A stretch of DNA of 64,000 nucleotides. It comes from a virus. Taxonomy: Duplodnaviria > Caudoviricetes. Below, one piece after another: positions 5,002 through 61,167 of the stretch. Every line of letters starts with the position of its first letter. Positions within the stretch are counted from its first letter, which is position 1. The stretch covers positions 32,001 through 96,000 of IMG/VR virus record IMGVR_UViG_3300045771_000049; one strand, given 5' to 3'. A program made the translations under genes and the position numbers. The notes under the pieces are model-generated. The model saw only the letters and a list, made by a program, of their open reading frames with translations, made no database searches and was not told the origin of the DNA.

Positions 5002-5021
5002 CTATAAACTTGGATCGAGCC

Positions 5022-6773: not shown

Positions 6774-8291
6774 ATGGCATACTTGCTCGCTGATACTTTT
6801 GATTTCTACGGAAGCTACGCTGATCTCGCCCTGCGTTGGATCATCGGCCCCTATGTGCCCGCGTTTGTCCCAGCGGCGAACACCGCCTTCGGCACCGGGC
6901 AGGCATTGCAGGCGAATGACATCAATGGCCTCGCTTTATCGATGCAAGGCAACTTCGTGACCACCGGCACGCTGGGTGGCAATGAGCCAACCATCTATTT
7001 GTCTTTTCGTCTGAAAGCTCTTCCCGGCATCGGCATCGGCCAGCAATTCCAAGTCCTGCTGACCAGCAATAGTTCCCCACAGATCGCCATCCAATTTACC
7101 GGGGATGGCTCGATCGTGATCCGCAACGGCGGCACGGGAGGGTTCCCCCTCGCACCCGCCCAGCCTGCCGCCTTTGTGATCAACACCTGGGACAGTTGGC
7201 AGGTCAAAGTGTTCATCAGTCAAGCAGCAGGCACCGTCGAGGTCCGCAAAAACGGCTCGACGACACCATTGTTTGTATTGACCAATGTAAACACCCAGGC
7301 CAGCAGCACAGCCTCGGCCAATGGCCTGCAACTTTACAACAACACCAGCGGCACCAGCACCCCGTTTTGGGCACTCGATGATCTCTACGTGAACAGTGCG
7401 AATGACGCGGCCCCAACCTCCTGGCCGGGCGATGTGCGCGGCACCGTCGTGATGCCGAATGGTGCCGTGACTACAGGTTTCACCGCGTTTCCGGCTGCCC
7501 TGATCGCGCATCGCTATTGGCGGATCAACATAACCACTGTATCAAATGGGAATAACGTCAATCTTGCTGAACTCCAAATGGCATCCTCTGTTGGCGGCGC
7601 TAATCTGTTCGGTTCCGGCACGGCTTTCGCGTCGGCCGCCCAGGGCAGCAGCTATCCCGCCTCGGCTGCCTGTGATGGTAATCTAACGAGTTTCTGGAGC
7701 ACGCCCGATACCGGATCATCAACATCATTACCACAATGGTGGGCATATGATTTCGGCGCGGGCCACAGTTTGATCGTAACGGAGGTTCGGATTTACCCGC
7801 TGAATGTGAGCGGCTCGCCCTACGCACCAACCGCCTTCACGCTGGACTATTCGGACGACAGTTCGATTTGGACAACGGTGCAAGCCTTCACAACGGCCGG
7901 TTGGTCGATCAGCACGTGGCAGACCTTTGACGTGACCGGTTACGGCCTGTCAAATTACGCGGCCGTGAATAATCCCACCGAAAATGGCGGGGCGACCTAC
8001 GTGCAAGCCTCCGTGATCGGGACCGAAGACCTGTATAGCGTCTCGCCGACGAGCGCGCAGAATGTCATCGGCGTGAATGTATTTGCGTATTTGAAACGGT
8101 CTGATTCTGGGAGCAAAACTGCTGGCATTCAGGTCAAGCTCAGTGGCGGCACGGATACCACGGAGCTAACCATCAATCCCTCGTTGAGCTACGCGTGGCA
8201 GACGGCCTATCTGGCGGTCGATCCAACGGGCGCACCCTGGACCCCAACGACGGTCACGACGATGAATCTCGGCATCAAGGTCATTACGTAA
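6774..8291 (+). CDS. virion/fibre protein with F5/8 type C (discoidin)-like domain
   Basis: YPASAACDGNLTSFWS...WWAYDFG...VTEVRI...FTLDYSDD..WT pattern; in an operon with the fibre gene. Confidence 0.7.
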   Translation: MAYLLADTFDFYGSYADLALRWIIGPYVPAFVPAANTAFGTGQALQANDINGLALSMQGNFVTTGTLGGNEPTIYLSFRLKALPGIGIGQQFQVLLTSNSSPQIAIQFTGDGSIVIRNGGTGGFPLAPAQPAAFVINTWDSWQVKVFISQAAGTVEVRKNGSTTPLFVLTNVNTQASSTASANGLQLYNNTSGTSTPFWALDDLYVNSANDAAPTSWPGDVRGTVVMPNGAVTTGFTAFPAALIAHRYWRINITTVSNGNNVNLAELQMASSVGGANLFGSGTAFASAAQGSSYPASAACDGNLTSFWSTPDTGSSTSLPQWWAYDFGAGHSLIVTEVRIYPLNVSGSPYAPTAFTLDYSDDSSIWTTVQAFTTAGWSISTWQTFDVTGYGLSNYAAVNNPTENGGATYVQASVIGTEDLYSVSPTSAQNVIGVNVFAYLKRSDSGSKTAGIQVKLSGGTDTTELTINPSLSYAWQTAYLAVDPTGAPWTPTTVTTMNLGIKVIT

Positions 8292-10813: not shown

Positions 10814-10855
10814 TCTTATTTACACCAGATTGCCATGTGTTGTATAAATAGAAAT

Positions 10856-12106
10856 ATGAAAGCGTTCAAGTATAGACTGAAGCCGACTAGCGAGCAAGAG
10901 GGCGCATTGCGTCAAACTGGCGGTGCTTGTCGTTGGCTTTGGAATAAGATGCTCGAACAGAACAAAGCCAAATACGAACAAGAAAAGAAATTTGTCTTCA
11001 AGTATGATTTGGTCGGGTCTCTACCAAAACTGAAAGAGCTACATCCGTGGCTGAAGGAAATGCCTAGTCAATCGTTGCAGCAGAGATGTTGGGATTTGGA
11101 TACCGCTATGAAGCGGTGCTTCAAGTCGGGATTTGGATTCCCGAAGTTCAAATCGAAAGATGATGAAAACGACACGTTCCGTATCTCCCAGACCAATGGG
11201 CATATTAAAGTCACACGGCAGGCGATCAAGCTACCAAAATTAGGATGGATCAACTGGCGGCGTCATCGACCCATCGATGGCAGATTGATGTCTGTCACCA
11301 TCAAGCAGGAGGGCATTCGCTGGTATGCTATTTGTTTGTGCGATACAGGCGAGGTGCTGAACCAGATCAGCGTTTGTGAAGATGACATCGTTGGTATTGA
11401 TCTTGGATTATCCTGCTTTGCCATGACCAGCGATGGCGAACTATTTGAGAAGCCAGCCCAATGCTACCAACGACTCAAACATGAGCAACGGAAGTTGAGT
11501 CGGATTGACGAGTCGAACAAGAAACAAGGCATTACCAAGTCCAACAGAAGGCTCAAACAGAAACAAATATTAGCCAAAACGCATCGTATTATTAGCGATC
11601 AGCGATATGATTTTCATCACAAGACGAGTAGAGAGATAGCCAATTTCTATAAGTTTGCTGGCATGGAAGACCTACATATCAAAGGAATGATGAAGAACCA
11701 CTGCTTAGCAGGTTCAATAGCTAAGGCAGGCTGGCACTCATTCCGAATGATGATACGATACAAACTCAAAGACCAAGGCGGCGATCTGTTACTGGCGGAT
11801 CGGTTCTATCCAAGTACCAAGCTGTGTTCGAGTTGCGGTCATAAGCAGGCGATGACGCTTGCCGATCGCACGTTCACATGCGAATCCTGTGGGATGGAGA
11901 TGAACCGAGATGCCAATGCGGCGATCAATTTGAAGCTGTGGGCGATGAGAGAGATGAATAGGGCTGGGACAGTCCGAATCTACGCACGGGGAGATACCGC
12001 CATCGGGGACGAAATACGTAAGTCGTCTAGATGTGTATCATTGAAGCGTGAAAAGTTCCGAGACAATCAGGTCTTGGAAGCCGCGACCTCTTTAGGGTCG
12101 CGGTAG
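10856..12106 (+). CDS. tnpB: RNA-guided nuclease TnpB
   Basis: N-terminal KAFKYRL HTH; RuvC motifs GIDLG, EDL, RDANAA all intact; CxxC...CxxC zinc finger; TATAAATA at 10843-10850. Confidence 0.95.
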   Translation: MKAFKYRLKPTSEQEGALRQTGGACRWLWNKMLEQNKAKYEQEKKFVFKYDLVGSLPKLKELHPWLKEMPSQSLQQRCWDLDTAMKRCFKSGFGFPKFKSKDDENDTFRISQTNGHIKVTRQAIKLPKLGWINWRRHRPIDGRLMSVTIKQEGIRWYAICLCDTGEVLNQISVCEDDIVGIDLGLSCFAMTSDGELFEKPAQCYQRLKHEQRKLSRIDESNKKQGITKSNRRLKQKQILAKTHRIISDQRYDFHHKTSREIANFYKFAGMEDLHIKGMMKNHCLAGSIAKAGWHSFRMMIRYKLKDQGGDLLLADRFYPSTKLCSSCGHKQAMTLADRTFTCESCGMEMNRDANAAINLKLWAMREMNRAGTVRIYARGDTAIGDEIRKSSRCVSLKREKFRDNQVLEAATSLGSR

Positions 12107-12667
12107 TTCACATGAATATCGTTCCGATATGTTTCCGCTATCCAGTTTATCCTGGTCATAGTTCGCGAATTCAGATCGAATTTGACTTGGATTGAATACT
12201 ACGTATTGCGTAATGGGCGTTTTTCCATCCGGACTATCGGTTAACGTGTCCGGCAGGACGATCCCATCATAGCCATTGGCTTGGAGAAATTGACGGGCAG
12301 CAGGGTAATCGGTCGTGTCACCATTCATCCGGATTTGCCGTCCGCCGACCACGTAGTCGGGTTTTCTGAATGTGGTGAAACGATCGACCAGATCACGGAT
12401 TTCATTGTAGCTCTTGATCACCCAGGGATGCTTCAAGCGCAACCGCACCGGCATGACCGACGCGCCCTGTCCCCGTGCGGCAAAATCGGCAAACCCTGAA
12501 GCCGCCTCGGGATTATCCGTAAACCAGATGCCCAATGGACCTTCGCGCGATCCACTGCCCAGCTTACTGCCCATTTCAAAGGTGTGAAAATCTTTGTTAG
12601 TGCCGTGAAATGCTTTGATATTGAACCCAAGCTGTTCGGGACGGCCGATTAATTCCATGAGCCGCAT
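12092..12667 (-). CDS. ART-PolyVal-like ADP-ribosyltransferase domain protein
   Basis: FHGT, GIWFT, VMPVRL, GYDG, VVFNPSQIRS; last codons now supplied by the IS end. Confidence 0.8.
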   Translation of the reverse strand: MRLMELIGRPEQLGFNIKAFHGTNKDFHTFEMGSKLGSGSREGPLGIWFTDNPEAASGFADFAARGQGASVMPVRLRLKHPWVIKSYNEIRDLVDRFTTFRKPDYVVGGRQIRMNGDTTDYPAARQFLQANGYDGIVLPDTLTDSPDGKTPITQYVVFNPSQIRSEFANYDQDKLDSGNISERYSCELPRP

Positions 12668-15600
12668 CAGTATTTGCCTGTGCGCGTGGGAGTCGTGGCC
12701 GCCACTCTTGGCTGGTCTTGTGCCGCGCTCATATCCACAGAAACGTTTGGCGTGGTTTCGTCGGTCGCCTGCTTCACATCATTGACCTTAACGTTGATAT
12801 CGCGCTTCGGCACATCGTGCTGGGTTTGTGTCCCGGTCCCGTTTTTCCATTTGACCGCGAACCGGTAGAACGCGCTGGTCGGATGAGGCCGGTGCGGTCG
12901 GCGGGCCGGAGCCGAGGTGCCGCCACCAAACCCATCGGTCCGCAGATTGAGACCGGGTACGCCTGTGCCGATCTGCACGATCCCAGGCGGATGAACCACC
13001 GCGCCCCCAGTGGCAATCGGATCGCCAGAGACATCCTGGATCGTGCCGCCATTCAGATTAAGCGCAATGATCCGCAGATCGTCCGTGTTCTGATTATCGC
13101 CGATAGTATAGGAAAATACTATCGCATTGCCCGGTGCCGGATCGCCCATGTAGGTTGCGATGCCGCCATCATTCAGGCTCAAGGTTGGCGAACCCGTTAC
13201 CGTTACCTGTTCGCTCAGGTAAAGGGTCATCAAGGCAGTCGAACCCAGCGTCAGCGAACCCGAGCCATTGGTCACATCAGCGCCGGTAATCGCCACCGAG
13301 ATGATGATCGCTTGGTTGCAGCCGACGGTATCCTGTGCATTGCCGGTTTCCGACGTGTTGCTGGAGTCAATCCCCATGATAACGGCCATATCAACGGCCG
13401 AACAGGTTTCCGCAACGCCAGCGATATAAATCGCTGTTGCATTGGTCTGATCAAGCGCGAGACCGGTGTCTGTGCTATTCGCCACCGCCCATTCGGCGAT
13501 CTCACAGGCATCGGCAAGCTCGCAAAGCTCGGTCACATCATCAATCGAGGTGTCAAGCGCACTGGTGGCATCGGCAGACAGTCCGCCTTCGATAATAGCC
13601 GCAAGAGTGATCAGAGTGGCATCCGTGCGGTCCGCCATGCCCCCCGTTTCGACCACCGCCTGCGTGCTGATCAGAACACTATCGGTCAGGTCCGCCGCAA
13701 CCCCGAACTCGATGATCGACGCCAAAGTCATGTAAGTGGCATCAACCACTTCGATCGTCAAATTGGATTCCATCACCGGCACGAGTGTCACGATGGCATC
13801 GATACACATTTCGCGCGCGACCGCATTGACCTCTTCAATATCCGCATAGGTGTTCCAGATGCAATCGACTTGGTCGGTCGCACCCCCCAGTTCAGCAATG
13901 GTCGCCGCGAACCACACAAACACGGCGATCTGATCCGTTATCGTTTCGGCTTCATCCACCCCAATCCCGGAGAAGTTGCCGCCATTGCCACTATCACTGG
14001 CGCCTTCGAGTTCATCGACCTCGCCGACGAAAACATCATCCCTCGTATCCATCGAGTCTACACAGTTGCCAAACTCTGCGATCGTTGTAATGAAGGTCGC
14101 CGTGCTGTCGGCGATATCGCTGCATGAGCCGAGATCACCAGCGCTGCCGCCAAACTGACTGAAGGCGGTGTCAGGCAGGTCGGCACAGGACAAGAAGTCT
14201 CTGGTATCGCCATTGAAATTGCTGCTCAGCGTATCGAAACTGTCGAGCGCTGCGCATAGTTCTGCCACCGTACTGGCGAAGATCGCGACGACGCTGGCCT
14301 GATCGAGGGTCGCTTCGGTTTCCTCTGTATCTCCATCGAACAGGCTGGCAAACGTATTGACACTATCTTCTGGCCCGCAATTTTCAGGCGTCTCACCAAC
14401 GAACAGATTGGCCCGATTGTCGGTCAGATCGAGCGCGATCGGTATCTCGTCGATTTGGGCGACGAAGATCGCGGTTATGCCGCTCGTATCCCCAATGATG
14501 CCGATCTCGTCGGTTTCCCCGCTATAGGTGCTGGCGATGATAGCCGACAGGTCAACCAGAGCGCCGGTTTCATCGGTCTCGCCGCCCAGCAGGTTCGCGT
14601 AGGTATCGGTCAGATCAGACGCCGCGCCAATTTCAGCGATCACGGTAGCAAACACGGCCACCACGTTCGTCAGATCGGTGCTAGCGCCGGTTTCATCGGT
14701 CTCGCCGACCCATATACTATCGGCGGTGTCTACGGTCTCAGTGAGGCCCAGCGGCTCGCTTACGTCACCTGGGGCGATGTTCGCGGCGAACGGAGCATCA
14801 AGCAGGTTACAAAGCTCCACAACCGCACCCCAGTAGGCGCTTGGCCCGACATCAACGAGGTCCTCGGCGTCAGGAAATTCGGCGATGATCCCCTCGGTGA
14901 TGTCTACGTCTACCGGCTGGTCAAGTAGATCAGCGCTCTCATCGACCTCACCGACGAACACGCTGAGGGCTTCGTTCGTGAGGTCCAGCGCCGTTCCGGT
15001 GTCCGTCGTGTTGCCTAGGTAGACACTTTCGTAAGTGTCGAGGTGATCCCTGGCGAAACAGAAATTGAACGCGCTGGCGACAAAATCGGCCTGCGTGTAG
15101 CAGGTCTCATCCGCTTGGCCGGTTTCGTCGGTTTCACCCACGTAAACACTGGCGATGACATCAGCCCAATCACTCGCACCAGCGGTCTCGGATGCATCAC
15201 CGCCATATTGCGCCTCGAAGGTATCGAAACTATCGATCGCAGTTCCGGTTTCGAGGCAGTCAACAATATAATCAACGGTGGTATCACACTCATCGGCTGA
15301 AGACGCAGTTCCTTCGTTAATATTCGCGTTGCCAATATGACCCGCGTTAACGATTTCGGCCGCGTGCAGGGTGTCGCTGGTCGCTCCGACGAACAGATTG
15401 TCGGCGGTATCGGCCAGATCGAGCGGGGAGGCGAATTCCGCATTGGACCCGATGAACACGGCAGTGGCGCTGAGAGCATCCGTGCAGCCCTCGGCTTCGC
15501 TAATTGCCCCGCCAAACATGCTGTCATATTCTTCGGCATCATCCAGCAAGCCGTAGATTTCGCTGGCGTTACCGTTGAACAGATTGAACCCGTTATCGGA

Positions 15601-18600
15601 GGCATCCGTCAGGCCGCCATATTGGTCAAGCTCATCGATCTCGGCGGCAAATACCGCACTGACATTGGTCGCGTCTTGCAGCGTCGTGAGCAGATCATCC
15701 GTATCACCACCCAGCAGACAGCCATAGAGATCGGCGGCCTCGGCGAGACTGCCCGTTTCGCTCGTGTCGCCGCCAAAAATGCTATCGCTGGTGTCTACAA
15801 GCTCACTGAGCGCACCGGTTTCCTCGGTTGTGCAGGCGAACCATGCAGTGGCATCCACAATTTCTGCGGCCCAGCCGGTTTCGTCATAGGTCCCCACGAA
15901 GCTGCTTGGACCAGGGGCGCATGCATCACCCAACCCGTCCGCATCGGCGATATCACCGCCAAAGATGTTGGCGAAATTATCAGCATCGTCCTGACAGTTT
16001 CCAGCATCCTCGATATCACTGATGAAGATTGCCGTCGCGTCTGTGACGTCATTGGCGGCCAATGTTTCGGCCATATCGCCTACGTAGTCACTGTCCGCAA
16101 CATCACTGCTATCGCTGATAGCAAGGCTTAAATCGATCGCGCTATTGGCGATGTTCTCGCCCGCGCAGCCATCAATGCCAATACCGAATTCTGCAACAGC
16201 ACCGACGAATATACTGTCCAGCGTGTCGGTCAAATCGGCGCCATCCAGGAATTCAAACTCCAGGCCATACGTGCTATTGACATCGACTACAAAATCATCA
16301 ATGAACTGCGCATCTTCTTCGATATCACCGACGAAAATGTTATCAGAGACGTCAACCACATCTGCCAGATCGCTGAATTCACTCGTGTGACCGGTATAGA
16401 TACTGCCGAAATCATCTACGCTGTCGGTGAGTACGCCATCATCTTCGATATCCGTAACGAAAATTGCGGTCGCGTCGGCCGGATCATCAGCAAAGCCAAA
16501 TTCATCCACTTCACTGACAAAATCAGCATTGGCGCCGCTCTCATCCGAAATCGTATCAGCATCCGTCGAATCGCCGACGAACACGTTGGCATAAACATCC
16601 ACCCAATCTTCGCCAGCCAGGGTCTCCTCAGTCTGGGCAACGAAGATGGTAGTGCAGGTGATAACATCACTGGCCGTCAGTTGCTCTTGAACCGCGCCGA
16701 TGAAAATGCTTGCAAACGTATCAGTGAGTTCATCCAGTTCGCCCAGTTCACTGGCATCCCCATCGAACGTATCATCGATCGTGTCCATGGCGTCGCGACC
16801 ATCACCCGCCTCATCCACTTCGGCCGCGAAGATTGCCGAGCAAGCGGACTGGTCACCTGCATCCAGCGTTTCGTCGGTCTCGCCCACGAAAATGCTGCCG
16901 AAAGTATCGGCCGCATCGAGCGACGCACAGCTATCGAGAGTTGCGCCATTGTAAAGGCAGAACTGGGTATTAGTCTGATCAGCGGCGGCGCTTGTCTCAT
17001 CACAGAACGAAACAAAATCAGTGGTCTCGGTCAGACCATCACTGGGTGTCAGTCTCTCATCGGTTTCGCCGACGAAAATGCTGGCAGTGAGATCGGCATA
17101 GTCGGCCGCATCCAGCCCATCGCTATTATCGCCTCCAAAGACGTTAGTGGTATTGTCGGTAAGATCGGCACCGAAAGCGTCCTCCACCGCGTCTACGACG
17201 AAAATCGCAGTGCTGCTCGGGACATCCAGCACGGCGAGTGCATCGCTGGTGGCCCCATTGAGGATGCTGCCGAGACAATCCGGCAGATCGATAAGTTGGC
17301 CATCCTCCTGCACATCACCCAGGAACACACTGGCATAGGTGTCGGTGAAGTCATGAACATGGGCGAAATTGACCCCTGTCGCGACAAACAGCGCGGAGCA
17401 ATTGGCCTGTTCTGCCGCATCCAGGGTTTCATCGGTCTCACCGTCAAACACGCTGGGGCCGGTGTCAACACTGTCTGCGAGATCGGCGGCTTCATCGCAC
17501 TCGGCCACGCCGATGATATTGGCCGCAAGCGCATCGATCGCGGCACCAAGCTCATCGGTTTCGCCGACGAAGAGACTGGGCGCGGTGGCGACCGGCTGGT
17601 CATTGGCGCCCAAGGCTTCGTTGATGTTGACTAGGGTCTGGTCGGTTTCCGAGGCGAAGTCACCAATGCTGCCAGTTTCGGTGTATTGGCCAACCAGGGT
17701 GCTAGGCCCGAGGTCCGAAGCGTCGCCCGTCGATCCAGTTTCAGTGACAGCACCGTCGAAGCTATTTGAGTCATTATCGGTTTGATCGGCGGCATTCGCT
17801 GTCTCGACGCTGAGACTGACGAAGACCGCAGTGCTATCACAAACGTCGAGCAAGGCGCCGGGTTCGATGCAATCACCACCAAATGCGCCACCGAAGATAT
17901 CCGGCTGGTCTGCGACCCAACCCGCTTCATCGGTGTTGCCACCATAGATATCCATGTGACTATCAGCAATATCGGTGGCGAAACGCACGTTATGGATGGT
18001 GGTGTTGAAGATCGCGGTGCGATCAAGCGCATCCGTGATATGGGTTTTTTCGGTGTAATCGCCCAGGAAAATACTGCCCGAGCCATCAGTTGTATCGGTC
18101 GCGTTTGCCAGTTCATCGGCCTCGCCAATGTAGATGCTGGCAAAGTTATCGGCGTAATCGGCGAGAGTGCCGAGTTCGTTAACCGAGGCAATGAAGATGG
18201 CGGTTGCATCGCAGGCGTCCAGAACCAGAAGGTCATCGGCCAGCGCACCGACAAACAGGCTGTTCAGATCGTTTGGTGAATCAGCGGCATTGGCGATTTC
18301 GCTGCCATCGCCGACCCATTGACTGATTGTCGTGTCAGACGCGTCTGTGATCGAAACGATCTCGGCGATCAGCGCCGCGAACACGGCTGTGGTGTCTGTG
18401 CGATCGGTCGTTGTGGCAAGCACTTCGCCTTCGATGCCGGTGAGGATATCGTAAAGGGAATCGCTTTGGTCACCGGTCGCGCCCGCCTCAACCGTGGCCC
18501 CGCCAAAGACGTTGCCCTCGGTATCACTCAGGTCATCGAGTGCTCCGTTTTCGAGGCAGGTGCTGAGGAAACTGGCCGTAATCGTTTCAGCATCAGAGGC

Positions 18601-21600
18601 CGATCCCGTTTCGGTTTCCGCCCCCACGAGCGTATCGTCCAGTGAGGTGACGAAATCGACCGGGACACCTGTGTCTGTGGTGGCGCCGCCGAAGAGGTTC
18701 CCTGAATTATCGCAGGTATCACCGGACGCTCCGAAGTCACTGATGGAAACACTGAAGTCTGCATGATTCGCGACTGTGTCGAGAGCCGCCGCAGAGGCGT
18801 CATCAATGGCGCCATTAAACAGGTTGTTGGCGGTGTTGCTGGCATCCTGGGTCTGGCCTTGCTCATCGGTTTCGCCGACGAACACACTGAGATTGGTGGC
18901 TGTGATCTCGACGACCGCCCCAGTCTCATCGGTTTCACCAACAAAGCTATTGGCGTTTGTATACACAACTTCGGCGATTGCGCCGGTCTCATCGGTTTCA
19001 CCAACAAAGCTATTGGCGTTTGTATACACAACTTCGCCGATCGCGCCGGTCTCAGCGATAGCGCCGACGAATATGCTGGCATGGGTGTCTGTGGTATCGG
19101 CAAGGTCGTTCAGATCATTAATGAAATTTTCATTTTGATCGCCTGCTTCGATCCCTAGATCGGTTAATGCGCCGCTTTCCGCAACTGTGCCAACGAAACC
19201 ACTCTGTGCGGTAGTTGTCGCCTCGGTTGCGTTGCCAAACTCAAGACTTGTAACGACGAAACTGGCCACCGAGGTGGCGAGATCACTGGCTGCGCCATTC
19301 TCAGCAACAGCGGACCCGGTGATCGTGTTGCCGAGTGTGGTGTCAGCCGCAGCCAATAGCTCATTGGCGCTGCCACCAAACAGACTGGAGGCGGTGCCCG
19401 AGGTATCAGTCGCGAGGCCAGAATCGGCAATTGTAGCTACCGCAACGATCGTCGTGGAAATATATTCGAGGGCCGCACCAATTTCGTCAGTTTCTCCGAC
19501 AAAGAGGTTCAGATTCGTGTTCGAATAGTCACTCGCCGCGCCGGTCTCGCTTGCGGCACCGCCAAAGAGGCTGGGGGCGACAGTCGAGCCATCGTCCGCA
19601 GTGCCAGAATCGGCAATCGCGCCCCCATAGCTGCTCGGTGCCTCATTCGTCGCATCATTCGCCCCGCCCGCTTCGTTGACCAGGACCAAGGTGATATCGG
19701 TTTCGGCTTCGCTATCGGCGAGGGCCAAGGGTTCCCATACGGCGCCGACGAACAGATTGCCTGCTGTGGCCATTGTGTCGGTCGCTGAGAGGCTTTCCGG
19801 GGTTTGGCCGACGTAGAGGCTGGCTGCCACGTCCATGGCGTCAGTGGCCGTCCCAGCCTCGGCATAAGCACCGACGAAGATGCTGGCGAACAGACTGGGA
19901 CTATCAGCCGCATTCAGCGGCTCGGCGTCGCTCCCGACAAAGCTGCTAATCGTGGTAGCCAGCAATTCGGCCGCCGCGCCCGATTCGATTGTAGTCCCAA
20001 CATAGACACTGGGCGCTTCATTGACTGAATCGCTGACCAGATCGATCTCGTTGACCGTGGTATTGGCAATGAAGATAGCGATTTCGCTATCAGCCACATT
20101 GCCGGTTTCGGCCAGGGCGCCGCCAAAGGAACTATTGGTCGTGGCCGGGCTATCGAGAGCGGTGCCCGATTCGGCAACAGTGGTCGCGAAAATCGCCTGG
20201 ACTGCGGTGGCATCCGTGCCAAGCAGAGTTTCACCGTCCACAACTGTGGTAATGACATAGCCAGATTCCAGATCGCTTGCGGCCCCGGTTTCGGCATTGG
20301 CGCCCCCGAAACTGCTCGGCCCGGCATTGCTCAGATCGACGGCATTGGGGGTCTCTGCGATATTGGCAAAGGTCTGATAAGTCGCTGAGGGGACATCAAG
20401 TGCTGCGCCAATTTCGTTCGTCGCACCCACGAATACGTTTTGATTCAGGCTGACGCTTTCGACGAGATTACCAGTCTCGACTACTGCTCCCACAAATACA
20501 CTGGCAAACGTACTGGCTGCGTCATTTGCCGTCCCAGTATCGGCAATTGCCCCGTTGAAAAGACTTGGTGCTGTGGTCGCGGAGTCGGTCGCTGAACCGG
20601 TTTCGTTGGTGCTGCCGATCGCGGTATTCAGGGCACTCGGGTTATCGCTCGTCGCCCCGGATTCGGCGATCGCGCCAATGAAGACATTCTGATTGGTGGA
20701 AGGGATATCAGAGGCGCCGCCCATTTCGATGACTGTGGCAACCGCCAGTTCGGTTTCGGTCACGAGGTCCGATGCTAAGCCGGTCTCGCCGACGCTTACA
20801 TTCGTAATATAAACCGAGCTAGTAAGATCAGCCAGTGCGCCGGTTTCAGTCAAAGCTCCGACGAACGTATTGGCACTTGTGTTTACAGTATCGCTGGCCG
20901 ATCCGGTTTCCGGTGTGCTACGGTTCGCCGTGGTGAAGGCGATCAGACTATCGACCGCGTTGCCGTTTTCGGCGATCGCGCCTAGGAATATACTGGCATT
21001 TGTGGCTGGGATGTCGGTTGCCGAACCAGTCTCGCTGATTGCGCTGAGGGTAATATAGGTGGCAGAAGATTGATCAAATGCATTGCCGTTTTCGGGCGTA
21101 TTGCCGACCCATATATCTTGGGTGACACTGACCGTATCAGAGGCGATGCCTGTTTCGGCGACATTCCCTGAGTACAGACTGGCAAAGGCATTGGTCGCAT
21201 CATTGCTTGAGCCGGTTTCGGTGATGGCGCCAACGAAAATACTGCCGAGTGTGTCAGGATTGTCAAGCGCCGCGCCCAGTTCATCGGTTTCGCCCACAAA
21301 CGTGCTGATCGTCGTGGCCGGACTATCGCTCGCGTTGCCTGCTTCATTGATGATCGCGGCTGCGAGATAGATCGATCCCACGGCGTCAGAAGCGGCCCCG
21401 ATCTCGCTGTCGTCGCCACCATAGCTGCTGCCAAACGGAACCGTAGTATCAGCCGCATTGCCAAATTCAGTGATAAGCCCAAAGGTAATATCGGTCTCAT
21501 CGGTTGCATCAGTTAGCGCGCCAGTTTCGCCCGTGTTGCCCACATAGGTGCTGGCGATGATGGCTGTCGCCTCCGCAAGCGTGCCGGTTTCGGCCACCGC

Positions 21601-24480
21601 CCCGCCGAGAAGATTGGCGAGCGAATTGACCGCATCTGTGGCCAGACCCAATTCACTTATGTTACCAACGAAATTACTATTCGAGGCATTGACTGCATCA
21701 CTCGCATTGCCAGTTTCGGCGATGTTTCCAACGAATGTGCTGGGGCCGGTGTTCGCAATATCGGCGGCGCTTCCACTTTCGCTGATCGAGACATTGGTGA
21801 TCTTGCTGGCATTGGTCGTATCGGCTATGGCGCCCGCATCTGCGATCGCGCCAATAAATATGCTAGGCGCGGCAAGAACCATATCGCTGGCCGCACCAGC
21901 CTCTGCAATGCTGACATTTGTCGCATCGGTATTGGTGACTTGGTCGGATACGGCTCCGCTCTCATTGACCGCACCCACAAAGGTATTGGCGATAACGGTT
22001 ACATTGTCTTGAAGATTGCGAACCTCACTGGCATTCACGACCCCGTCTGGGGATGTCTGGGTGATCTGGTTCATCTGCAACGTGACAGCGGTCTGCGAGA
22101 GGAATCGCGCATAGGCCGCCGCCCCGGTCATCAACGCGATCGAGGTCGCGCCAAGCACAATGCCTTGGAACGAGGCGCCCGTGCCGATGGTCGAACTAGA
22201 AGCGATCACCCAGAAGATGTTTTTGGCTTGCAGACCGCCGCTGAGCGTAATGATCACCGAATTGGCTACGGTGAAGGTTCCGGCGACTTGGAGAACATAG
22301 ACATCGTTCGGGCCGCCCGTCAGGGTGACATTTGTGCTGACCAGAAGCCCGCTGGTCCATTTATAGATGCCAGGGGTAAGCGTTGCGCCGCCGATTTGGC
22401 CTGCGCCGAATTCACTGAAAGCAGGTGGGGCGCGGCCCACACCGTCATTGTAGGCGGTGAGCATATCGCCAACCGCGATGCTTAGATACGACGCGTTGAT
22501 AACCGCGCAGGGTGCTGGACCAGCCGCATCAACAACATAAATGTCACCGGTTACTTCACTGCAAGAAAGCAACATGGCGGCGCCCGTGATCGGACTAGTG
22601 CCCACATCGCCAACAACCACCGAAGGAAAGACATCGGTAACGCCAGACTCAGACAGGATGACAAAGTTGCCCGCTGTTCTGAGATTGATGGGTGATAGAT
22701 TTAGTCCGGTCGTGTCGGCGGCCGAACCTGATTCGGTGATCGCCGCACTGGTGATCTGCGTGGCTGCCACAACATCCGAGGCAGCGCCGGTCTCATTGAT
22801 TATGCCATTGAAGGTGCTGATCGTGGTCGAAGTGACCGCAGCCGCGTTGCCGGTCTCAACCACATTGCCAAAATACGTGCTCGCGATGATCGCCGCAACA
22901 TCTACACCTGCACCGCTTTCGTTGATGTTTCCACTATAAGCACTTGCGGCAATGGCCGGGATATCGACAGCCAACCCGCCTTCGCTCGTGCTGCCAACAT
23001 AGCTACTGGGTGCGGTAGCGCAACTATCATTTGCGGCGCCAGTTTCACTGACCAGAACGAACGTGAGATCGGTATCCAAGACCGTGTCGGTCGCATTACC
23101 GGTTTCGCTGATATTGCCGAAATACGTACTCGCAGCCACGCCAAACAGATCGACGGCATTACCAATTTCGATAACATTGCCGAAATAGACGCTTGCAACC
23201 ACACTCGTCAGATCAGTGGCCGCTCCAGTTGCCGTGATGGCAGCCGATGCGACATAGGTTTCGCTGGTCGCATCGACGATCGTCGTGTTGATCGTAACAA
23301 ACTCGACAACCGGTGATGCTTGGGTTGTACTGGCTTGGCCGAAGATCAGGGCAGCGTTGCCATTGACATCGGCTGTGAATGGAACGGTCACCCATGTTCC
23401 AGCGTTGGGAACGGTCCAACTGCTCGTGATGGTCGTTAGAAGGACGGTGTTGACCGTCAGGGTGAACACATAGTTGAGATTCGGACTATTATCGCCGGAC
23501 AGCAGGAAATTAACCGTGTACGGAGCAAATGGCACCAGCCCAGTCTGCGTATAGCTGGCTTGACCGACTGGGGTGGTTTCGTTGATTTGAAACGCACAGG
23601 CGCCGGACAATGAATCGATCAGTAGCCAACAGTTCCCTGCAAACGTCCAGCCCAGCGCGCTGGTTAAATTATATTGAGACGCACTTTCCATCGTTTGCGT
23701 TGTGATCGAACTACGATAGGTTCCAACGAACGCCGAACTTGAAAAATTCTGACTGTAGACGACGAAGGGCGTTTCGGCGACGCTGCCAGTGAAGATGCTA
23801 TTACTTTCATTGGGCGTGTCGGTCGCGTTGCCGGTTTCAGCCACGGTTGCGGCGAGCGGAGCCGCCAATGCCTCGATCAAAGAGGCACCGACAATATTGC
23901 TCGGCACCGTGTATTCGGCAAGTATTTCAGTATTGGTGGCGCCACCAAACAGTGTGACGGCCTCGATCGGGATGTTCGTGTTGGTAGTGTTGGTCATCAA
24001 CACGGTTGCGGTCGGGACGCTAACCGCGAGCGTGAGGGCAGCGTGATAGCCCATACCAAGGGCGATGCCGAGACTCGCCCCACCGGTCGTGTAAAGGGCG
24101 ACGGTATCCGCTGTGATACCAGCAAAAGTCGTAGTAGTGGTGCCGATTGGAAGGGTGGTCTTGGTCCCGGCGAGGCCGACCGCGAGGCAGACGGCAATGT
24201 CACACGCACTGCTGCTGGTGATCGACACCGAATTCGAGCCGGTTGGCGGATTGATCAGATACCACGCCCAGAGCGTCTGGTAGTTCGTCCCGGCTACCGA
24301 AACGATATTGGTCATTGCCGTGCCACCATAAGTGCAGGTCGGCACGTAACTGTATTTGCTTTGCGTGTAATAATAGACGATTAGTAGCGAACAGCCAGTT
24401 GCATTATAGCTTTGCGTATAGCTTAACGGGGTGCTGCCTGCCGAGTTGCCGGTTGAATAGGATACAATGGAAGATGACAC
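12667..24480 (-). CDS. giant (3937 aa) acidic repeat virion fibre/adhesin with DUF3494 ice-binding-like domain
   Basis: well over 100 ~20-22 aa ETG.A.D repeats; DUF3494-like domain ~22060-22690; Ig-like adhesin domain ~12970-13300; CTAAATA at 24515-24521. Confidence 0.8.
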   Translation of the reverse strand: MSSSIVSYSTGNSAGSTPLSYTQSYNATGCSLLIVYYYTQSKYSYVPTCTYGGTAMTNIVSVAGTNYQTLWAWYLINPPTGSNSVSITSSSACDIAVCLAVGLAGTKTTLPIGTTTTTFAGITADTVALYTTGGASLGIALGMGYHAALTLAVSVPTATVLMTNTTNTNIPIEAVTLFGGATNTEILAEYTVPSNIVGASLIEALAAPLAATVAETGNATDTPNESNSIFTGSVAETPFVVYSQNFSSSAFVGTYRSSITTQTMESASQYNLTSALGWTFAGNCWLLIDSLSGACAFQINETTPVGQASYTQTGLVPFAPYTVNFLLSGDNSPNLNYVFTLTVNTVLLTTITSSWTVPNAGTWVTVPFTADVNGNAALIFGQASTTQASPVVEFVTINTTIVDATSETYVASAAITATGAATDLTSVVASVYFGNVIEIGNAVDLFGVAASTYFGNISETGNATDTVLDTDLTFVLVSETGAANDSCATAPSSYVGSTSEGGLAVDIPAIAASAYSGNINESGAGVDVAAIIASTYFGNVVETGNAAAVTSTTISTFNGIINETGAASDVVAATQITSAAITESGSAADTTGLNLSPINLRTAGNFVILSESGVTDVFPSVVVGDVGTSPITGAAMLLSCSEVTGDIYVVDAAGPAPCAVINASYLSIAVGDMLTAYNDGVGRAPPAFSEFGAGQIGGATLTPGIYKWTSGLLVSTNVTLTGGPNDVYVLQVAGTFTVANSVIITLSGGLQAKNIFWVIASSSTIGTGASFQGIVLGATSIALMTGAAAYARFLSQTAVTLQMNQITQTSPDGVVNASEVRNLQDNVTVIANTFVGAVNESGAVSDQVTNTDATNVSIAEAGAASDMVLAAPSIFIGAIADAGAIADTTNASKITNVSISESGSAADIANTGPSTFVGNIAETGNASDAVNASNSNFVGNISELGLATDAVNSLANLLGGAVAETGTLAEATAIIASTYVGNTGETGALTDATDETDITFGLITEFGNAADTTVPFGSSYGGDDSEIGAASDAVGSIYLAAAIINEAGNASDSPATTISTFVGETDELGAALDNPDTLGSIFVGAITETGSSNDATNAFASLYSGNVAETGIASDTVSVTQDIWVGNTPENGNAFDQSSATYITLSAISETGSATDIPATNASIFLGAIAENGNAVDSLIAFTTANRSTPETGSASDTVNTSANTFVGALTETGALADLTSSVYITNVSVGETGLASDLVTETELAVATVIEMGGASDIPSTNQNVFIGAIAESGATSDNPSALNTAIGSTNETGSATDSATTAPSLFNGAIADTGTANDAASTFASVFVGAVVETGNLVESVSLNQNVFVGATNEIGAALDVPSATYQTFANIAETPNAVDLSNAGPSSFGGANAETGAASDLESGYVITTVVDGETLLGTDATAVQAIFATTVAESGTALDSPATTNSSFGGALAETGNVADSEIAIFIANTTVNEIDLVSDSVNEAPSVYVGTTIESGAAAELLATTISSFVGSDAEPLNAADSPSLFASIFVGAYAEAGTATDAMDVAASLYVGQTPESLSATDTMATAGNLFVGAVWEPLALADSEAETDITLVLVNEAGGANDATNEAPSSYGGAIADSGTADDGSTVAPSLFGGAASETGAASDYSNTNLNLFVGETDEIGAALEYISTTIVAVATIADSGLATDTSGTASSLFGGSANELLAAADTTLGNTITGSAVAENGAASDLATSVASFVVTSLEFGNATEATTTAQSGFVGTVAESGALTDLGIEAGDQNENFINDLNDLADTTDTHASIFVGAIAETGAIGEVVYTNANSFVGETDETGAIAEVVYTNANSFVGETDETGAVVEITATNLSVFVGETDEQGQTQDASNTANNLFNGAIDDASAAALDTVANHADFSVSISDFGASGDTCDNSGNLFGGATTDTGVPVDFVTSLDDTLVGAETETGSASDAETITASFLSTCLENGALDDLSDTEGNVFGGATVEAGATGDQSDSLYDILTGIEGEVLATTTDRTDTTAVFAALIAEIVSITDASDTTISQWVGDGSEIANAADSPNDLNSLFVGALADDLLVLDACDATAIFIASVNELGTLADYADNFASIYIGEADELANATDTTDGSGSIFLGDYTEKTHITDALDRTAIFNTTIHNVRFATDIADSHMDIYGGNTDEAGWVADQPDIFGGAFGGDCIEPGALLDVCDSTAVFVSLSVETANAADQTDNDSNSFDGAVTETGSTGDASDLGPSTLVGQYTETGSIGDFASETDQTLVNINEALGANDQPVATAPSLFVGETDELGAAIDALAANIIGVAECDEAADLADSVDTGPSVFDGETDETLDAAEQANCSALFVATGVNFAHVHDFTDTYASVFLGDVQEDGQLIDLPDCLGSILNGATSDALAVLDVPSSTAIFVVDAVEDAFGADLTDNTTNVFGGDNSDGLDAADYADLTASIFVGETDERLTPSDGLTETTDFVSFCDETSAAADQTNTQFCLYNGATLDSCASLDAADTFGSIFVGETDETLDAGDQSACSAIFAAEVDEAGDGRDAMDTIDDTFDGDASELGELDELTDTFASIFIGAVQEQLTASDVITCTTIFVAQTEETLAGEDWVDVYANVFVGDSTDADTISDESGANADFVSEVDEFGFADDPADATAIFVTDIEDDGVLTDSVDDFGSIYTGHTSEFSDLADVVDVSDNIFVGDIEEDAQFIDDFVVDVNSTYGLEFEFLDGADLTDTLDSIFVGAVAEFGIGIDGCAGENIANSAIDLSLAISDSSDVADSDYVGDMAETLAANDVTDATAIFISDIEDAGNCQDDADNFANIFGGDIADADGLGDACAPGPSSFVGTYDETGWAAEIVDATAWFACTTEETGALSELVDTSDSIFGGDTSETGSLAEAADLYGCLLGGDTDDLLTTLQDATNVSAVFAAEIDELDQYGGLTDASDNGFNLFNGNASEIYGLLDDAEEYDSMFGGAISEAEGCTDALSATAVFIGSNAEFASPLDLADTADNLFVGATSDTLHAAEIVNAGHIGNANINEGTASSADECDTTVDYIVDCLETGTAIDSFDTFEAQYGGDASETAGASDWADVIASVYVGETDETGQADETCYTQADFVASAFNFCFARDHLDTYESVYLGNTTDTGTALDLTNEALSVFVGEVDESADLLDQPVDVDITEGIIAEFPDAEDLVDVGPSAYWGAVVELCNLLDAPFAANIAPGDVSEPLGLTETVDTADSIWVGETDETGASTDLTNVVAVFATVIAEIGAASDLTDTYANLLGGETDETGALVDLSAIIASTYSGETDEIGIIGDTSGITAIFVAQIDEIPIALDLTDNRANLFVGETPENCGPEDSVNTFASLFDGDTEETEATLDQASVVAIFASTVAELCAALDSFDTLSSNFNGDTRDFLSCADLPDTAFSQFGGSAGDLGSCSDIADSTATFITTIAEFGNCVDSMDTRDDVFVGEVDELEGASDSGNGGNFSGIGVDEAETITDQIAVFVWFAATIAELGGATDQVDCIWNTYADIEEVNAVAREMCIDAIVTLVPVMESNLTIEVVDATYMTLASIIEFGVAADLTDSVLISTQAVVETGGMADRTDATLITLAAIIEGGLSADATSALDTSIDDVTELCELADACEIAEWAVANSTDTGLALDQTNATAIYIAGVAETCSAVDMAVIMGIDSSNTSETGNAQDTVGCNQAIIISVAITGADVTNGSGSLTLGSTALMTLYLSEQVTVTGSPTLSLNDGGIATYMGDPAPGNAIVFSYTIGDNQNTDDLRIIALNLNGGTIQDVSGDPIATGGAVVHPPGIVQIGTGVPGLNLRTDGFGGGTSAPARRPHRPHPTSAFYRFAVKWKNGTGTQTQHDVPKRDINVKVNDVKQATDETTPNVSVDMSAAQDQPRVAATTPTRTGKY
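18923..19054. repeat. near-perfect 63-bp tandem duplication inside the giant gene
   Basis: GTCTCATCGGTTTCACCAACAAAGCTATTGGCGTTTGTATACACAACTTCG at 18923 and 18986. Confidence 0.9.
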
Positions 24481-24711
24481 TGTTCAGCGGCTCGCATGCA
24501 AAAGGGATTGCTCCTATTTAGAAAGAACCGACCATCATCCGACCCAAGGTCGCCAATGTCAACCGTACGGAATGTGAATGGACGTATTGCCCACGCATCG
24601 CAAGCTCCATTTGTCACAAATATGTATACTAGTTTGTGACAAATGGCCAGCCTGATTCTGCAACGCCGAGCATGCTGCGTCGGAAGAAACGATGAGGGAA
24701 CTGGCAGAAGG

Positions 24712-25071
24712 TCAGTTATCTTGCTTGACCGGGGCTGGGCTATCAACTGCGCTGCTGCTTGGCGTCAGGTTCAGACTTTGCAAGGTAGCTCCGTCCAACT
24801 GACCGGTGACCGGTATAGCGTTCTTGCTCTGAAAGGCTTCGACCGCTTTCTTGGTATAGTGACCCCACACGCCATCAATCGGGCCGTCTTCGTAGTAACC
24901 ACTGTCTTGTAGCTTCTGTTGCACGGCCCGCACCGTATCGGACGATACCGAAGGCGCGGCAACACTAACGGGAGTCGGAGCAGGCGTTGGAGCGGTTTCT
25001 TTGTGTACCCAGCCGCAACCCGCTAGCAACACCAGAAATCCAAGCGTAATCGATAAAGTCAAGCTTTGCAT
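24712..25071 (-). CDS. peptidoglycan-binding-domain lipoprotein
   Basis: LAGC lipobox; VQQKL..GYY.GPIDGVWG..T..AV.AFQ....VTG.LD motif. Confidence 0.85.
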   Translation of the reverse strand: MQSLTLSITLGFLVLLAGCGWVHKETAPTPAPTPVSVAAPSVSSDTVRAVQQKLQDSGYYEDGPIDGVWGHYTKKAVEAFQSKNAIPVTGQLDGATLQSLNLTPSSSAVDSPAPVKQDN

Positions 25072-25225
25072 ATTGAAATCCTTTTGAAAATCCTATTTAT
25101 TCCCTGTGATACCACTGAATCTTTTAAAATCATTGAGTATAGCACTGACTGGAGTAACACGACATGCGTTAAGTTCTGTGCTACGCCAGCCATGTCGTTG
25201 CTAGGCTATGCCTTGATTTCGGCCG

Positions 25226-28977: not shown

Positions 28978-29577
28978 ATGCGCTCGCGTGAATTCCTTGA
29001 AGCGTTATCGATACGGGCACAGACCGAGACCCCCGAGTTTAAACGCTGGTTCGGGGCTTCGAAGGTGGTGGATGCCGAGGGACAGCCGCTGATCGTCTAT
29101 CACGGAACCACCAAGGATTTCGAGGCCTTCAAACTGCCCGGCCGCAAAGCCAGGGGCGGTAATGCGATCTTCTTCGCCACCGCGCCGAGTACGGCATCGT
29201 ATTTCAGCCGTAACATGGCCAATGCGCGAGTGCTTCCCGTCTACGTTCGCTTGGAAAACCCGTTTGACTTCGCGAGTGAGGCGGCATTGGCATTGATCGA
29301 GCCGTTCATCCGGAAGAACTTTGCGGCATTATATCCAGGTGCATTGTTCGGTCCGGATGCGGCCATCAGCTTCTTGCGCGGCGGCGACTATGGCAGTTTG
29401 GAAAAACCAGCGGTGCGCGCATGGATGGTCAAGCGCGGCTATGACGGGTTTTGGACCAACGAGCAGGCTGGTGGCCAGCGCACGCTCGGGGTCTTTAGTC
29501 CCAATCAAGTCAAATCAGCGATTGGCAATCAGGGTCAGTTCAATCCGGCTGATGACCGGATCAACGAGGCGCCGTGA
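28978..29577 (+). CDS. ART-PolyVal-like ADP-ribosyltransferase
   Basis: FKRWFGASKVVDAEGQPLIVYHGT...GYDG...VFSPNQVKSA; MRSREFLE leader. Confidence 0.85.
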   Translation: MRSREFLEALSIRAQTETPEFKRWFGASKVVDAEGQPLIVYHGTTKDFEAFKLPGRKARGGNAIFFATAPSTASYFSRNMANARVLPVYVRLENPFDFASEAALALIEPFIRKNFAALYPGALFGPDAAISFLRGGDYGSLEKPAVRAWMVKRGYDGFWTNEQAGGQRTLGVFSPNQVKSAIGNQGQFNPADDRINEAP

Positions 29578-33450: not shown

Positions 33451-34347
33451 ATGGGCTTCGTGATGGACGCCGACGCAGTAGCGTCGTTTCGGCGTGATGG
33501 GTTTGTGGCCATCGAGGGATTGGTTCAGGAGCCGGAGATTGCGCGTCTCCGCAGCATGTTAATGGACCTGCATGAGCGCAATGCGGGGTTCGAGGAAGGG
33601 GCGCAATTCGATGCGGCAGCGCCGGATGATGAATCCGAGACCCGGCGGTTTCCGCAAATCTTGAATCCGCACCATTTCGAGCCGCGTCTGCTCGCGACGG
33701 GATATCATCAAGTTGGTTTGCAAATCGCGCGTCAATTGCTCGGGGCGACGGCGCGATTTCGCTGTGCGGTTTCGTTCTTAAAGCCCGCACACATCGGCAG
33801 CGACACGCCCTGGCATCAAGACGAGGCGTTTGATAATCCGACATTCGATCATCAGGAAATCACCATCTGGCTGGCCCTGACCGAGGCGGATATCGCCCAT
33901 AGTTGCATGTCGTTTATTCCTGGGTCGCATCTTTATCCCGTCTTGGAGCATCGGCCGATGGACGGTGATCCACGCCTCCATGCGTTGGAATGTGTGGATA
34001 CCCGGTTTGATCCCACCCAGGCCATTGCCCGCCCTCTTGCGGCGGGTGGCTGCACGATCCACACCCAGCGAACCCTGCACTACGCCGGGCCGAATACGTC
34101 AGCCGATTATCGCTTGGCCTACGCATTGCTATTCGATCTGCCGCCCATCATCAGACGCGAGCAACGCGAATTCCCCTGGCAACAGCAGCAACAAACCGGA
34201 CGCGAAGCCCGTCACCAGCAATGGCGGCGGCGTGGCGGGGTGCTGATCCATTTCTGGCGCCAGCGCCATCGCGTCGGGTTCAAGCGTGGCATCGTGGGAC
34301 TGCAAACCCTGCTGAACCGGGTGATGCGCAAGTTTGGCCGCTCATGA
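33451..34347 (+). CDS. phytanoyl-CoA dioxygenase-like (PhyH) 2OG-Fe(II) oxygenase
   Basis: FRRDGFV; TPWHQD; SCMSFIPGSH; TLHYAGPNTS..YR. Confidence 0.9.
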   Translation: MGFVMDADAVASFRRDGFVAIEGLVQEPEIARLRSMLMDLHERNAGFEEGAQFDAAAPDDESETRRFPQILNPHHFEPRLLATGYHQVGLQIARQLLGATARFRCAVSFLKPAHIGSDTPWHQDEAFDNPTFDHQEITIWLALTEADIAHSCMSFIPGSHLYPVLEHRPMDGDPRLHALECVDTRFDPTQAIARPLAAGGCTIHTQRTLHYAGPNTSADYRLAYALLFDLPPIIRREQREFPWQQQQQTGREARHQQWRRRGGVLIHFWRQRHRVGFKRGIVGLQTLLNRVMRKFGRS

Positions 34348-35211
34348 CCGGATGCAATGGGCCAGACGGCGTTTGATAATTTGCGCATATGCCGGACTGA
34401 TCTCGATCAAGGTGGCTTTGCGCCCAAGTTCGGCTGCCACCAATCCAGTGGTGCCAGCGCCCGCGAAGGGGTCCAGCACCTGATCCCCTTCCGCTGATCC
34501 GGCCAGGATACAGCGGCCTGCGAGGTTGGGTGGCATGGTTGCGAAATGCGCGTCCTTGTACGGTTTTGTGGTGATCGTCCAGACGTTCCGGGAATTGCGC
34601 ATCGGGCCGCCATCAATACCCGGTTCCTCGCGGACCAATCCATGCGTGCCGCTACGGTGATCGCCTGCGCCGGGTGCCGCATAGGCGGCTTTCGAGGTGA
34701 GACGGCGCTGCGGCTTCATGATCGCTGGTTCGGCGATCGCCTCGGCGTTATAGCGATAGACCGGCTGCTTGGTGAGCAGAAACACATGCTCATGCACCGA
34801 GGTGGGGCGATCTTTGACCGGCTCTGGCATGGCGTTCGGCTTCTGCCAGATGATATCGGAACGTAACCACCATCCATCGGATTGGAGCGCCAGGGCAACG
34901 CGGGCTGGAAGCATCATCAAATCCTTCGGCTTGGCATTGGTGTGGCGTTTGCTGCGGCCAATCGCGCTATGCCCGTGCAGCGCCTTGACGTGTTTGCCGC
35001 CCGTGCTGCCGCCCCACTTGCCATCATTGGCGTAGGAATCCCCCAGCGTCAGCCAGAGCGTGCCATCATCGCGCAGCACCCGGCGTACCGCACGAAACAC
35101 CGTGACCAGATGAGCGATATAAGCCTCCGGCGTGGGTTCGGTGCCGATTTCGGCGGGCATAAAAAAGTCAAGAAGATGAGATGGAATCAAACTTTTCCGA
35201 AATAAATTCAC
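34342..35211 (-). CDS. C-terminal part of a split beta-class DNA methyltransferase
   Basis: EIGTEPTP...RVLRDDGTLWL.LGDSY...HFATMP...LDPFAGAGTT; lacks SPPY. Confidence 0.85.
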   Translation of the reverse strand: MNLFRKSLIPSHLLDFFMPAEIGTEPTPEAYIAHLVTVFRAVRRVLRDDGTLWLTLGDSYANDGKWGGSTGGKHVKALHGHSAIGRSKRHTNAKPKDLMMLPARVALALQSDGWWLRSDIIWQKPNAMPEPVKDRPTSVHEHVFLLTKQPVYRYNAEAIAEPAIMKPQRRLTSKAAYAAPGAGDHRSGTHGLVREEPGIDGGPMRNSRNVWTITTKPYKDAHFATMPPNLAGRCILAGSAEGDQVLDPFAGAGTTGLVAAELGRKATLIEISPAYAQIIKRRLAHCIRS

Positions 35212-61116: not shown

Positions 61117-61167
61117 TATATTCTCGTTTACTTCCCGAAGCTATTGAATATTTAGCCCATAGATAGT

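Follow-up and report, generated by a model that had tools for sequence, protein, structure and literature searches.

An ice-binding (DUF3494) domain within a giant repeat protein of a T4-like phage, a putative virion fibre

The locus and its giant gene

The DNA analysed here, referred to below as the window, is a stretch of 64,000 nucleotides (nt) that corresponds to positions 32,001 to 96,000 of the IMG/VR virus record IMGVR_UViG_3300045771_000049, a linear contig of 152,147 bp with a CheckV completeness of 36%. On its minus strand lies a gene for a protein of 3,937 amino acids (aa), in which a domain of the DUF3494 ice-binding family is inserted between the 21-residue repeats of a very long stalk. 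The protein has a mass of 399 kDa and an isoelectric point of about 4.05, with 582 aspartate and glutamate residues against 37 lysines and arginines. The gene and its modules are listed here from the N- to the C-terminus, with the basis of each assignment in brackets.

12667..24480, minus strand: giant gene, 3,937 aa, GTG start (open reading frame list and translation)
23833..24480, minus strand: domain A, two tandem jelly rolls of ~105 residues each, residues 1-216 (AlphaFold2, Foldseek)
23251..23769, minus strand: domain B, DUF642/galactose-binding-like, residues 238-410 (distant relatives, ESM Atlas)
22684..23220, minus strand: ~8.5 repeats of 21 residues, residues 421-599 (repeat listing; BLAST likeness to the main array)
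22036..22683, minus strand: ice-binding domain, residues 600-815 (PF11999, phmmer)
14101..21981, minus strand: main array, ~127 repeats of 21 residues (repeat listing, autocorrelation)
18908..19054, minus strand: recent 63-nt tandem duplication within the array, 2.3 copies, 91% match (Tandem Repeats Finder)
13531..14100, minus strand: degenerate repeats or transition, residues ~3460-3650 (translation, weaker periodicity)
12670..13530, minus strand: non-repeat C-terminal region with a basic low-complexity tail, residues ~3651-3937 (translation)

Two observations support the GTG start: an in-frame TGA directly adjoins it upstream, and homologues of domain A align with the giant protein from their own first residues, the alignments beginning at residue 1-7 of the homologues and at residue 1-6 of the giant protein. 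No signal peptide was found in the translation.

Identity of the ice-binding domain

The first-pass annotation had read a DUF3494 motif series at 22060-22690 and had placed it near the N-terminal end of a repeat protein of ~3900 aa. The motifs are indeed present in the translation of 12667-24480 (minus strand), at nearly exactly those coordinates; the domain occupies residues ~600-815 of 3,937 (22036-22683, minus strand), and autocorrelation confirms the repeats. A plus-strand reading of 22060-22690 was rejected, and the feature is assigned to the minus strand because plus-strand translation there yields only stops. The PF11999 search that the annotation had suggested gave a full-model match: the Ice_binding/DUF3494 profile aligns with residues 608-807 (22060-22659, minus strand) over model positions 1-208 of 208, with 167.7 bits against a cut-off of 28.7 and an E-value of 3.7e-49, and it is the only Pfam family matched in a search of the whole 3,937-aa protein. 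A six-frame search of the 152-kb contig with the same profile returned a single, stop-free copy (E 8.2e-53).

Among PDB sequences, phmmer matched 25 solved DUF3494 proteins, headed by ColAFP (3WP9; E 2.6e-69, ~206 residues aligned, query residues 3-208) and followed by FfIBP (4NU2; E 4.7e-66, likewise over ~206 residues). By a hand count of the alignment, ColAFP has the same residue as the phage domain at 112 of 206 positions (~54%), and both cysteines of the cap region (LLSC...PAPC) align with cysteines of ColAFP and FfIBP. A cysteine-bearing cap separates the FfIBP group from a capless group, according to the account of Do et al. given in PMC10992025. Judged by its sequence, the phage domain is a member of this canonical capped, disulfide-type group (FfIBP/ColAFP), the disulfide itself being predicted. 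ColAFP and FfIBP have been reported to be hyperactive, with thermal hysteresis of 3.8 and 2.5 degrees C, respectively (PMC10992025). DUF3494 ice-binding faces show strong sequence divergence even among hyperactive members, and this variability makes ice-binding activity unreadable from the face residues themselves (PMC5673226).

Relatives and evolution of the domain

Stand-alone relatives of the domain are abundant, with 4,444 in a set of 5.8 billion proteins at E<=1e-20, the best among those listed being 60-66% identical. Among species-representative genomes, the nearest relatives (55-65% identity) come from an Anaeromyxobacter metagenome-assembled genome (MAG), an uncultured Colwellia, many MAGs with labels of the GL, GFS, VAR and OTE series, and many species of Flavobacterium, e.g., F. 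xueshanense, F. xinjiangense, F. urumqiense and F. ranwuense, and they also include F. psychrophilum, Labilibaculum and Lutibacter. The GL and GFS labels presumably denote glacier-fed-stream projects, and we take the four Flavobacterium species named first to be glacier isolates. Glaciers, glacier-fed streams and polar seas are suggested by the names of most of the bacteria that carry the closest relatives, and this lends indirect support to the cold or freeze-thaw habitat proposed for the phage in the first-pass annotation.

In a maximum-likelihood tree of the domain, a quick version in which the phage row is long-branched, the phage copy groups with the Anaeromyxobacter and Colwellia copies (Shimodaira-Hasegawa approximate likelihood ratio test, SH-aLRT, 94), and the enclosing clade of 58 rows has a support of 99. 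The tree also holds DUF3494 copies from a methanogen, Saccharibacteria and Atribacterota. At the columns that are >=90% conserved among 54 bacterial relatives, the phage domain keeps 95 of 121 (79%), and the substitutions at such columns are mostly conservative (I/V, L/F). Two conserved lysines have been lost, matching the avoidance of lysine throughout the giant protein. The GC content at third codon positions (GC3) is 0.66, the same as in the remainder of the gene, so the domain would not be a recent arrival. To judge from these features, the domain is intact and long resident, and is not decaying.

DUF3494 is also found on other contigs recorded as viral, as well as in giant proteins of cells. 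Five IMG/VR contigs, which may be phage or host DNA, carry the domain at 40-47% identity to the phage copy. Those designated L007-L010 (e.g., L009:9410-10663, plus strand) encode lipoproteins of 417-490 residues with a lipobox, two repeat domains and a C-terminal DUF3494; these copies are 40% identical to the phage domain and fall in a separate, Mucilaginibacter-type clade. Among giant proteins of cells, a 2,317-residue protein of Labilibaculum antarcticum (57% identity) is one example in which DUF3494 is embedded. In addition, two giant metagenomic proteins (3,660 aa and 2,811 aa) carry the domain in mid-chain, at 53% and 45% identity; one of the two is full of immunoglobulin (Ig)-type domains, and the other has cysteine-rich repeats and a C-terminal membrane anchor and is probably eukaryotic.

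The other modules of the giant protein

The AlphaFold2 model of domain A is all beta, with 16 strands and a predicted local distance difference test score (pLDDT) of 87.5. Foldseek found no match to it in the PDB at E<=1e-3, and a PDB profile search with domain A was likewise negative. Among predicted viral structures it returned 69 matches at that threshold, with template modelling (TM) scores of 0.6-0.84, many of them labelled 'minor tail protein' (Mycobacterium and Gordonia phages) and others being uncharacterised Caudovirales proteins. Against the PDB, VIA-align retrieved generic jelly rolls with Z-scores of 7-9, i.e., TNF/C1q, BclA, carbohydrate-binding module and phage receptor-binding-head folds. 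Sequence relatives of domain A either stand alone or form the N-terminal module of glycoside hydrolase family 5 (GH5) cellulases of about 680-780 residues. The fold family is common to phage tail proteins and glycoside hydrolases and has no Pfam model.

Domain B is probably a sugar-binding module, an assignment that rests on remote similarity. Its relatives are PEP-CTERM proteins of ~220 aa, one of which has a weak DUF642 match, and the ESM Atlas placed it at 0.93 with clusters of DUF642 and galactose-binding-domain (GalBD)-like proteins. It had no direct Pfam match, and a PDB profile search gave just a doubtful match to the Q-beta coat protein.

The stalk repeats follow the consensus F-V-G-x3-E-x-G-x-A-x-D-x6-S-x and combine into a three-repeat super-unit of 62 residues, as seen in autocorrelation peaks at 21, 41, 62, 83 and 104 residues. 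The 63-nt tandem duplication corresponds to the copying of one 21-residue repeat, and near-identical repeats lie at residues 1804-1866. No relative of the repeats was found in the 5.8-billion-protein set, in IMG/VR or by PDB profile search, and their alignment was too variable to serve as a search query.

The C-terminal region had no Pfam, PDB profile or PHROG match. The ESM Atlas placed it at 0.76 with a cluster in which 14% of the members bear Big_5. This region is likely the end by which the protein would be attached to the particle, and we treat it as a candidate for that role.

Phage context and promoter motif

The carrier is, by its gene content, a T4-like tailed phage, and a jumbo phage by its implied size. 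The contig encodes a T4-type (Gp23) major capsid protein (PF07068, 5.5e-77) and a T4-type portal protein (PF07230), and the CheckV completeness, taken at face value, implies a genome of about 400 kb. These genes support the phage origin assumed in the first-pass annotation, and the protein is, as described there, a giant repeat protein, of a type seen in fibres and adhesins. The DNA of the window had no match among 50,697 deposited phage genomes; megablast with 24 kb of the window and tblastn with the ice-binding domain and domain A found nothing real there, even at E<=1. At loci related through the upstream 187-aa gene, unrelated large open reading frames occupy the place of the giant gene, which makes these loci uninformative about it. 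The features around the gene that matter most here are the following.

4863-6770, plus strand: tail-fibre gene (PHROG tail fibre families, E down to 5e-35)
6774-8291, plus strand: virion structural protein gene (PHROG match)
12092..12667, minus strand: ART-PolyVal ADP-ribosyltransferase gene, downstream of the giant gene (Pfam PF18760, E 2.7e-18)
24515..24520, minus strand: TAAATA promoter-type motif, 40 nt upstream of the giant gene start, in the context TTTCTAAATAGGAG

The tail-fibre and virion structural genes lie about 4-8 kb from the giant gene, the distance to the tail-fibre genes being about 6 kb. A baseplate wedge-like gene is found at 58615-61116, and the contig also has a tail-spike-like gene.

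The contig has 84 TAAATA sites, often in the form CTAAATA, and 43 of them are followed by a gene start on the same strand after 8-70 nt; for unrelated control hexamers the figures are 1 of 35 and 2 of 22. Other sites in the window are 25094-25099, 61149-61154 and 63012-63017 (all minus strand). The motif precedes baseplate, tail-spike and virion-protein genes, and also methyltransferase and effector genes. TAAATA resembles the T4 late promoter, TATAAATA. The late promoter of the first-pass annotation thus stands as a motif that is real, associated with genes and 40 nt upstream of the GTG; expression from it may be late.

The ATG of the ART-PolyVal gene overlaps the TGA of the giant gene (TGATG), which suggests translational coupling of the effector to the giant gene. 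This coupling brought up a reading of the giant protein as a polyvalent, i.e., a giant injected effector, which was rejected because the protein has no enzyme domain and is made of extracellular-type binding modules. Paralogues in the same PHROG family as the ADP-ribosyltransferase lie at 28978-29577 (plus strand) and 43623-44375 (minus strand) of the window and at 123211-124545 (minus strand) of the contig. Just upstream of the giant gene, 24712-25071 (minus strand) encodes a small protein that has a lipoprotein-like signal (LLAGC) and matches PG_binding_1 (E 1.4e-17); the gene is preceded by a TAAATA motif of its own. In the interval that separates the tail-fibre genes from the giant gene, 10835-12106 (plus strand) encodes an IS605-family TnpB-like transposase (phrog_506, E 1.4e-108). 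Its best genomic relatives reach only 30-45% identity and come from many different phyla, thus offering no clue to the host. The window also contains three paralogous DNA methyltransferase genes (3691-4761, 34342-35211 and 56959-58080, all minus strand; phrog_67, E 4e-51 to 5e-68).

Proposed function and alternatives

In the reading that we favour, the giant protein would be a fibre attached to the virion of a T4-like jumbo phage, with a design resembling that of bacterial ice adhesins. We regard this reading as evenly poised, because it combines two parts that each carry some doubt: that the domain binds ice, which its likeness to ColAFP and FfIBP makes rather probable, and that the protein sits on the virion, for which we have a comparable degree of confidence. 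The virion appendage proposed in the first-pass annotation draws indirect support from the fold of domain A, the lack of a signal peptide, the TAAATA motif shared with structural genes and the nearby tail-fibre genes; presence in the particle is best kept as a proposal.

In such a fibre, the N-terminal end would group three binding-type modules, namely the tandem jelly roll, the DUF642-like sugar binder and the capped DUF3494 domain, and about 135 acidic 21-residue beta repeats would form a long polyanionic stalk, which metal ions may stiffen. The ice-binding domain would be looped out between repeats as a side knob. The first and last coils of DUF3494 domains lie side by side (PMC11645318), so that such a domain could loop out of the fibre without breaking it. 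The non-repeat C-terminal end would attach the fibre to the particle, leaving the adhesive N-terminal end to point outward. T4 Hoc, which is attached by its C-terminus and has its N-terminal domains at the distal end, offers a precedent. Since the protein is cytoplasmic and has no signal peptide, it would meet ice only after lysis, and the cheapest use of such a cytoplasmic protein would be on the particle. After lysis, the flat beta-helix face of the domain could adsorb to ice crystal faces, thereby keeping virions at ice surfaces or at the walls of brine veins, sites at which hosts are concentrated, and slowing ice recrystallisation locally around the particle. More tentatively, the phage may possess its own ice adhesin in the full sense, i.e., a ~400-kDa fibre that tethers virions, causing their active partition into ice and allowing their persistence through freeze-thaw.

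Several observations weigh against an ice-binding virion fibre. No PHROG family matched the giant protein as a whole, and searches with the whole protein, the stalk or the N-terminus found no relative, either among giant proteins of the 5.8-billion-protein set or in IMG/VR or JGI metagenomes, so a structural role has no comparative support. The immediate neighbours of the gene are non-structural (the ADP-ribosyltransferase, the IS605-type transposase and the peptidoglycan-binding lipoprotein). The 'minor tail protein' labels in actinophage records, which account for many of the fold matches of domain A, are largely positional. The AlphaFold2 model of the repeats is all beta, but its confidence (pLDDT 48) is too low to base a fold search on it. 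Finally, the branch of the phage domain measures 0.54 against a median of 0.045, and because of this length its ligand could have shifted.

In an alternative that we consider unlikely, the protein is still a virion fibre, but its DUF3494 domain does not bind ice. The flat face of the domain would instead adhere to a glycan of the host surface, a capsule, slime or a particle, and would serve host finding together with the two N-terminal modules. DUF3494 occurs in many organisms without a clear link to ice, as illustrated by the methanogen, Saccharibacteria and Atribacterota copies in the tree, and, besides the long branch, the resemblance of the adjoining modules to sugar binders fits this view. 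However, the phage copy falls within the capped ColAFP/FfIBP clade and outside the divergent clades, most of its closest relatives belong to bacteria with names that refer to cold habitats, and it has kept the cap cysteine pair as well as most conserved columns.

In a non-virion role, the protein would be made late, released at lysis or left on cell debris, and would serve as a soluble or matrix-forming polyanionic cryoprotectant that inhibits ice recrystallisation around released particles or surviving hosts. An 11.8-kb repeat stalk would, however, be a very high price for delivering one 200-residue domain in solution. Viral PF11999 genes have been read as host-protecting auxiliary genes (PMC11515562), and IMG/VR contigs carry DUF3494 as ordinary lipoproteins. 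The position of the gene among non-structural genes would also suit a protein that never joins the particle, as would the fact that no virion-attachment domain was recognisable in Pfam, PHROG and PDB profile searches. Yet domain A has a fold typical of phage tail proteins, and without a signal peptide the protein would have no route outside a living host; we therefore think this role quite improbable. Lastly, a functionless passenger, decaying or neutral after its insertion by recombination into a hypervariable fibre gene, could be imagined from the recombinogenic stalk with its recent 63-nt duplication and from the long branch, but we see scarcely any likelihood in it given a domain that is complete over 208 model positions without stops or frameshifts, keeps 95 of 121 conserved columns and has a composition fully adjusted to the gene, lysine loss included.

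Novelty and implications

The known ice-binding proteins come from cold-adapted cells, which secrete them or keep them anchored to the cell. Full-text literature searches returned no paper on an ice-binding domain in a virion protein, and phages or viruses are not mentioned in the DUF3494 surveys PMC11645318 and PMC9957290. What distinguishes the present protein, as far as its translated sequence tells, is a canonical capped domain close to proven antifreeze proteins combined with an orphan repeat stalk. If the protein is indeed an ice-binding virion fibre, it would be the first virus-borne ice-binding structure and would provide a mechanism for the enrichment and survival of viruses in ice; viruses themselves, besides cells, would be able to grip ice. 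This would bear on the concentration and survival of viruses in sea ice, glaciers, frozen lakes and freeze-thaw soils, as well as on phage-host encounter in brine veins. The domain resembles ColAFP and FfIBP closely enough for a clear outcome to be expected from standard ice assays, and the orphan acidic 21-residue repeat could represent a new type of extender for long fibres.

Comparison with known systems

The closest characterised counterparts of the domain are ColAFP from Colwellia sp. SLW05 (3WP9) and FfIBP from Flavobacterium frigoris PS1 (4NU2), which belong to the same family and sub-group, align with it end to end and share its cap cysteines. Their solved chains have 226-248 residues, whereas the phage domain is internal to a 3,937-residue protein, between 21-residue repeats. 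Bacterial relatives of that size have been described as secreted (PMC10992025). The phage protein has no signal peptide, and its domain has lost conserved lysines; antifreeze activity of the phage domain would be a prediction.

With regard to viruses, Rahlff et al. (2024) reported three Arctic viral operational taxonomic units (vOTUs) with PF11999 genes, which were read as serving host cryoprotection (PMC11515562). These genes, like those for the IMG/VR lipoproteins, likewise place DUF3494 on viral contigs, but their products are small proteins.

Longer ice-binding proteins (IBPs) are found on bacterial cells. One example is SfIBP_1 from Shewanella frigidimarina (6BG8), which has tandem beta-sandwich domains and has been proposed to act as a DUF3494 ice adhesin, as summarised from Vance et al. 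(2018) in PMC11645318 and PMC9957290. As in the phage protein, DUF3494 is joined there to extender domains for ice tethering, and 6BG8 was matched by the phage domain at E 3.7e-13. SfIBP_1 differs in being a cell-surface protein with a few Ig-type domains and in having a DUF3494 that is a far more distant relative than that of ColAFP. Ice-tethering IBPs typically carry a signal peptide and a membrane anchor (PMC9957290), in contrast to the phage protein, which has neither.

Another example is MpIBP from Marinomonas primoryensis, a 1.5-MDa repeats-in-toxin (RTX) ice adhesin with an extender of ~0.6 micrometre and with sugar-, peptide- and ice-binding modules at its far end (PMC5550230). The phage protein is not an RTX ice adhesin of this type: Pfam shows no RTX repeats, the repeats are 21 rather than 104 residues long, and the C-terminus is basic. 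The extender of MpIBP consists of about 120 Ig-like repeats, each 104 residues long, and its ice-binding domain, of the RIV type, is a beta-solenoid that depends on Ca and lies outside DUF3494; MpIBP also has RTX repeats, type I secretion and a C-terminal binding end, whereas the phage protein combines 21-residue repeats with DUF3494, N-terminal binding modules and a viral carrier. What the two share is a very long acidic extender of tandem repeats with sugar- and ice-binding modules grouped at one end, and the analogy that the first-pass annotation had drawn with bacterial ice-binding domains displayed on long repeat adhesins is thus an apt one.

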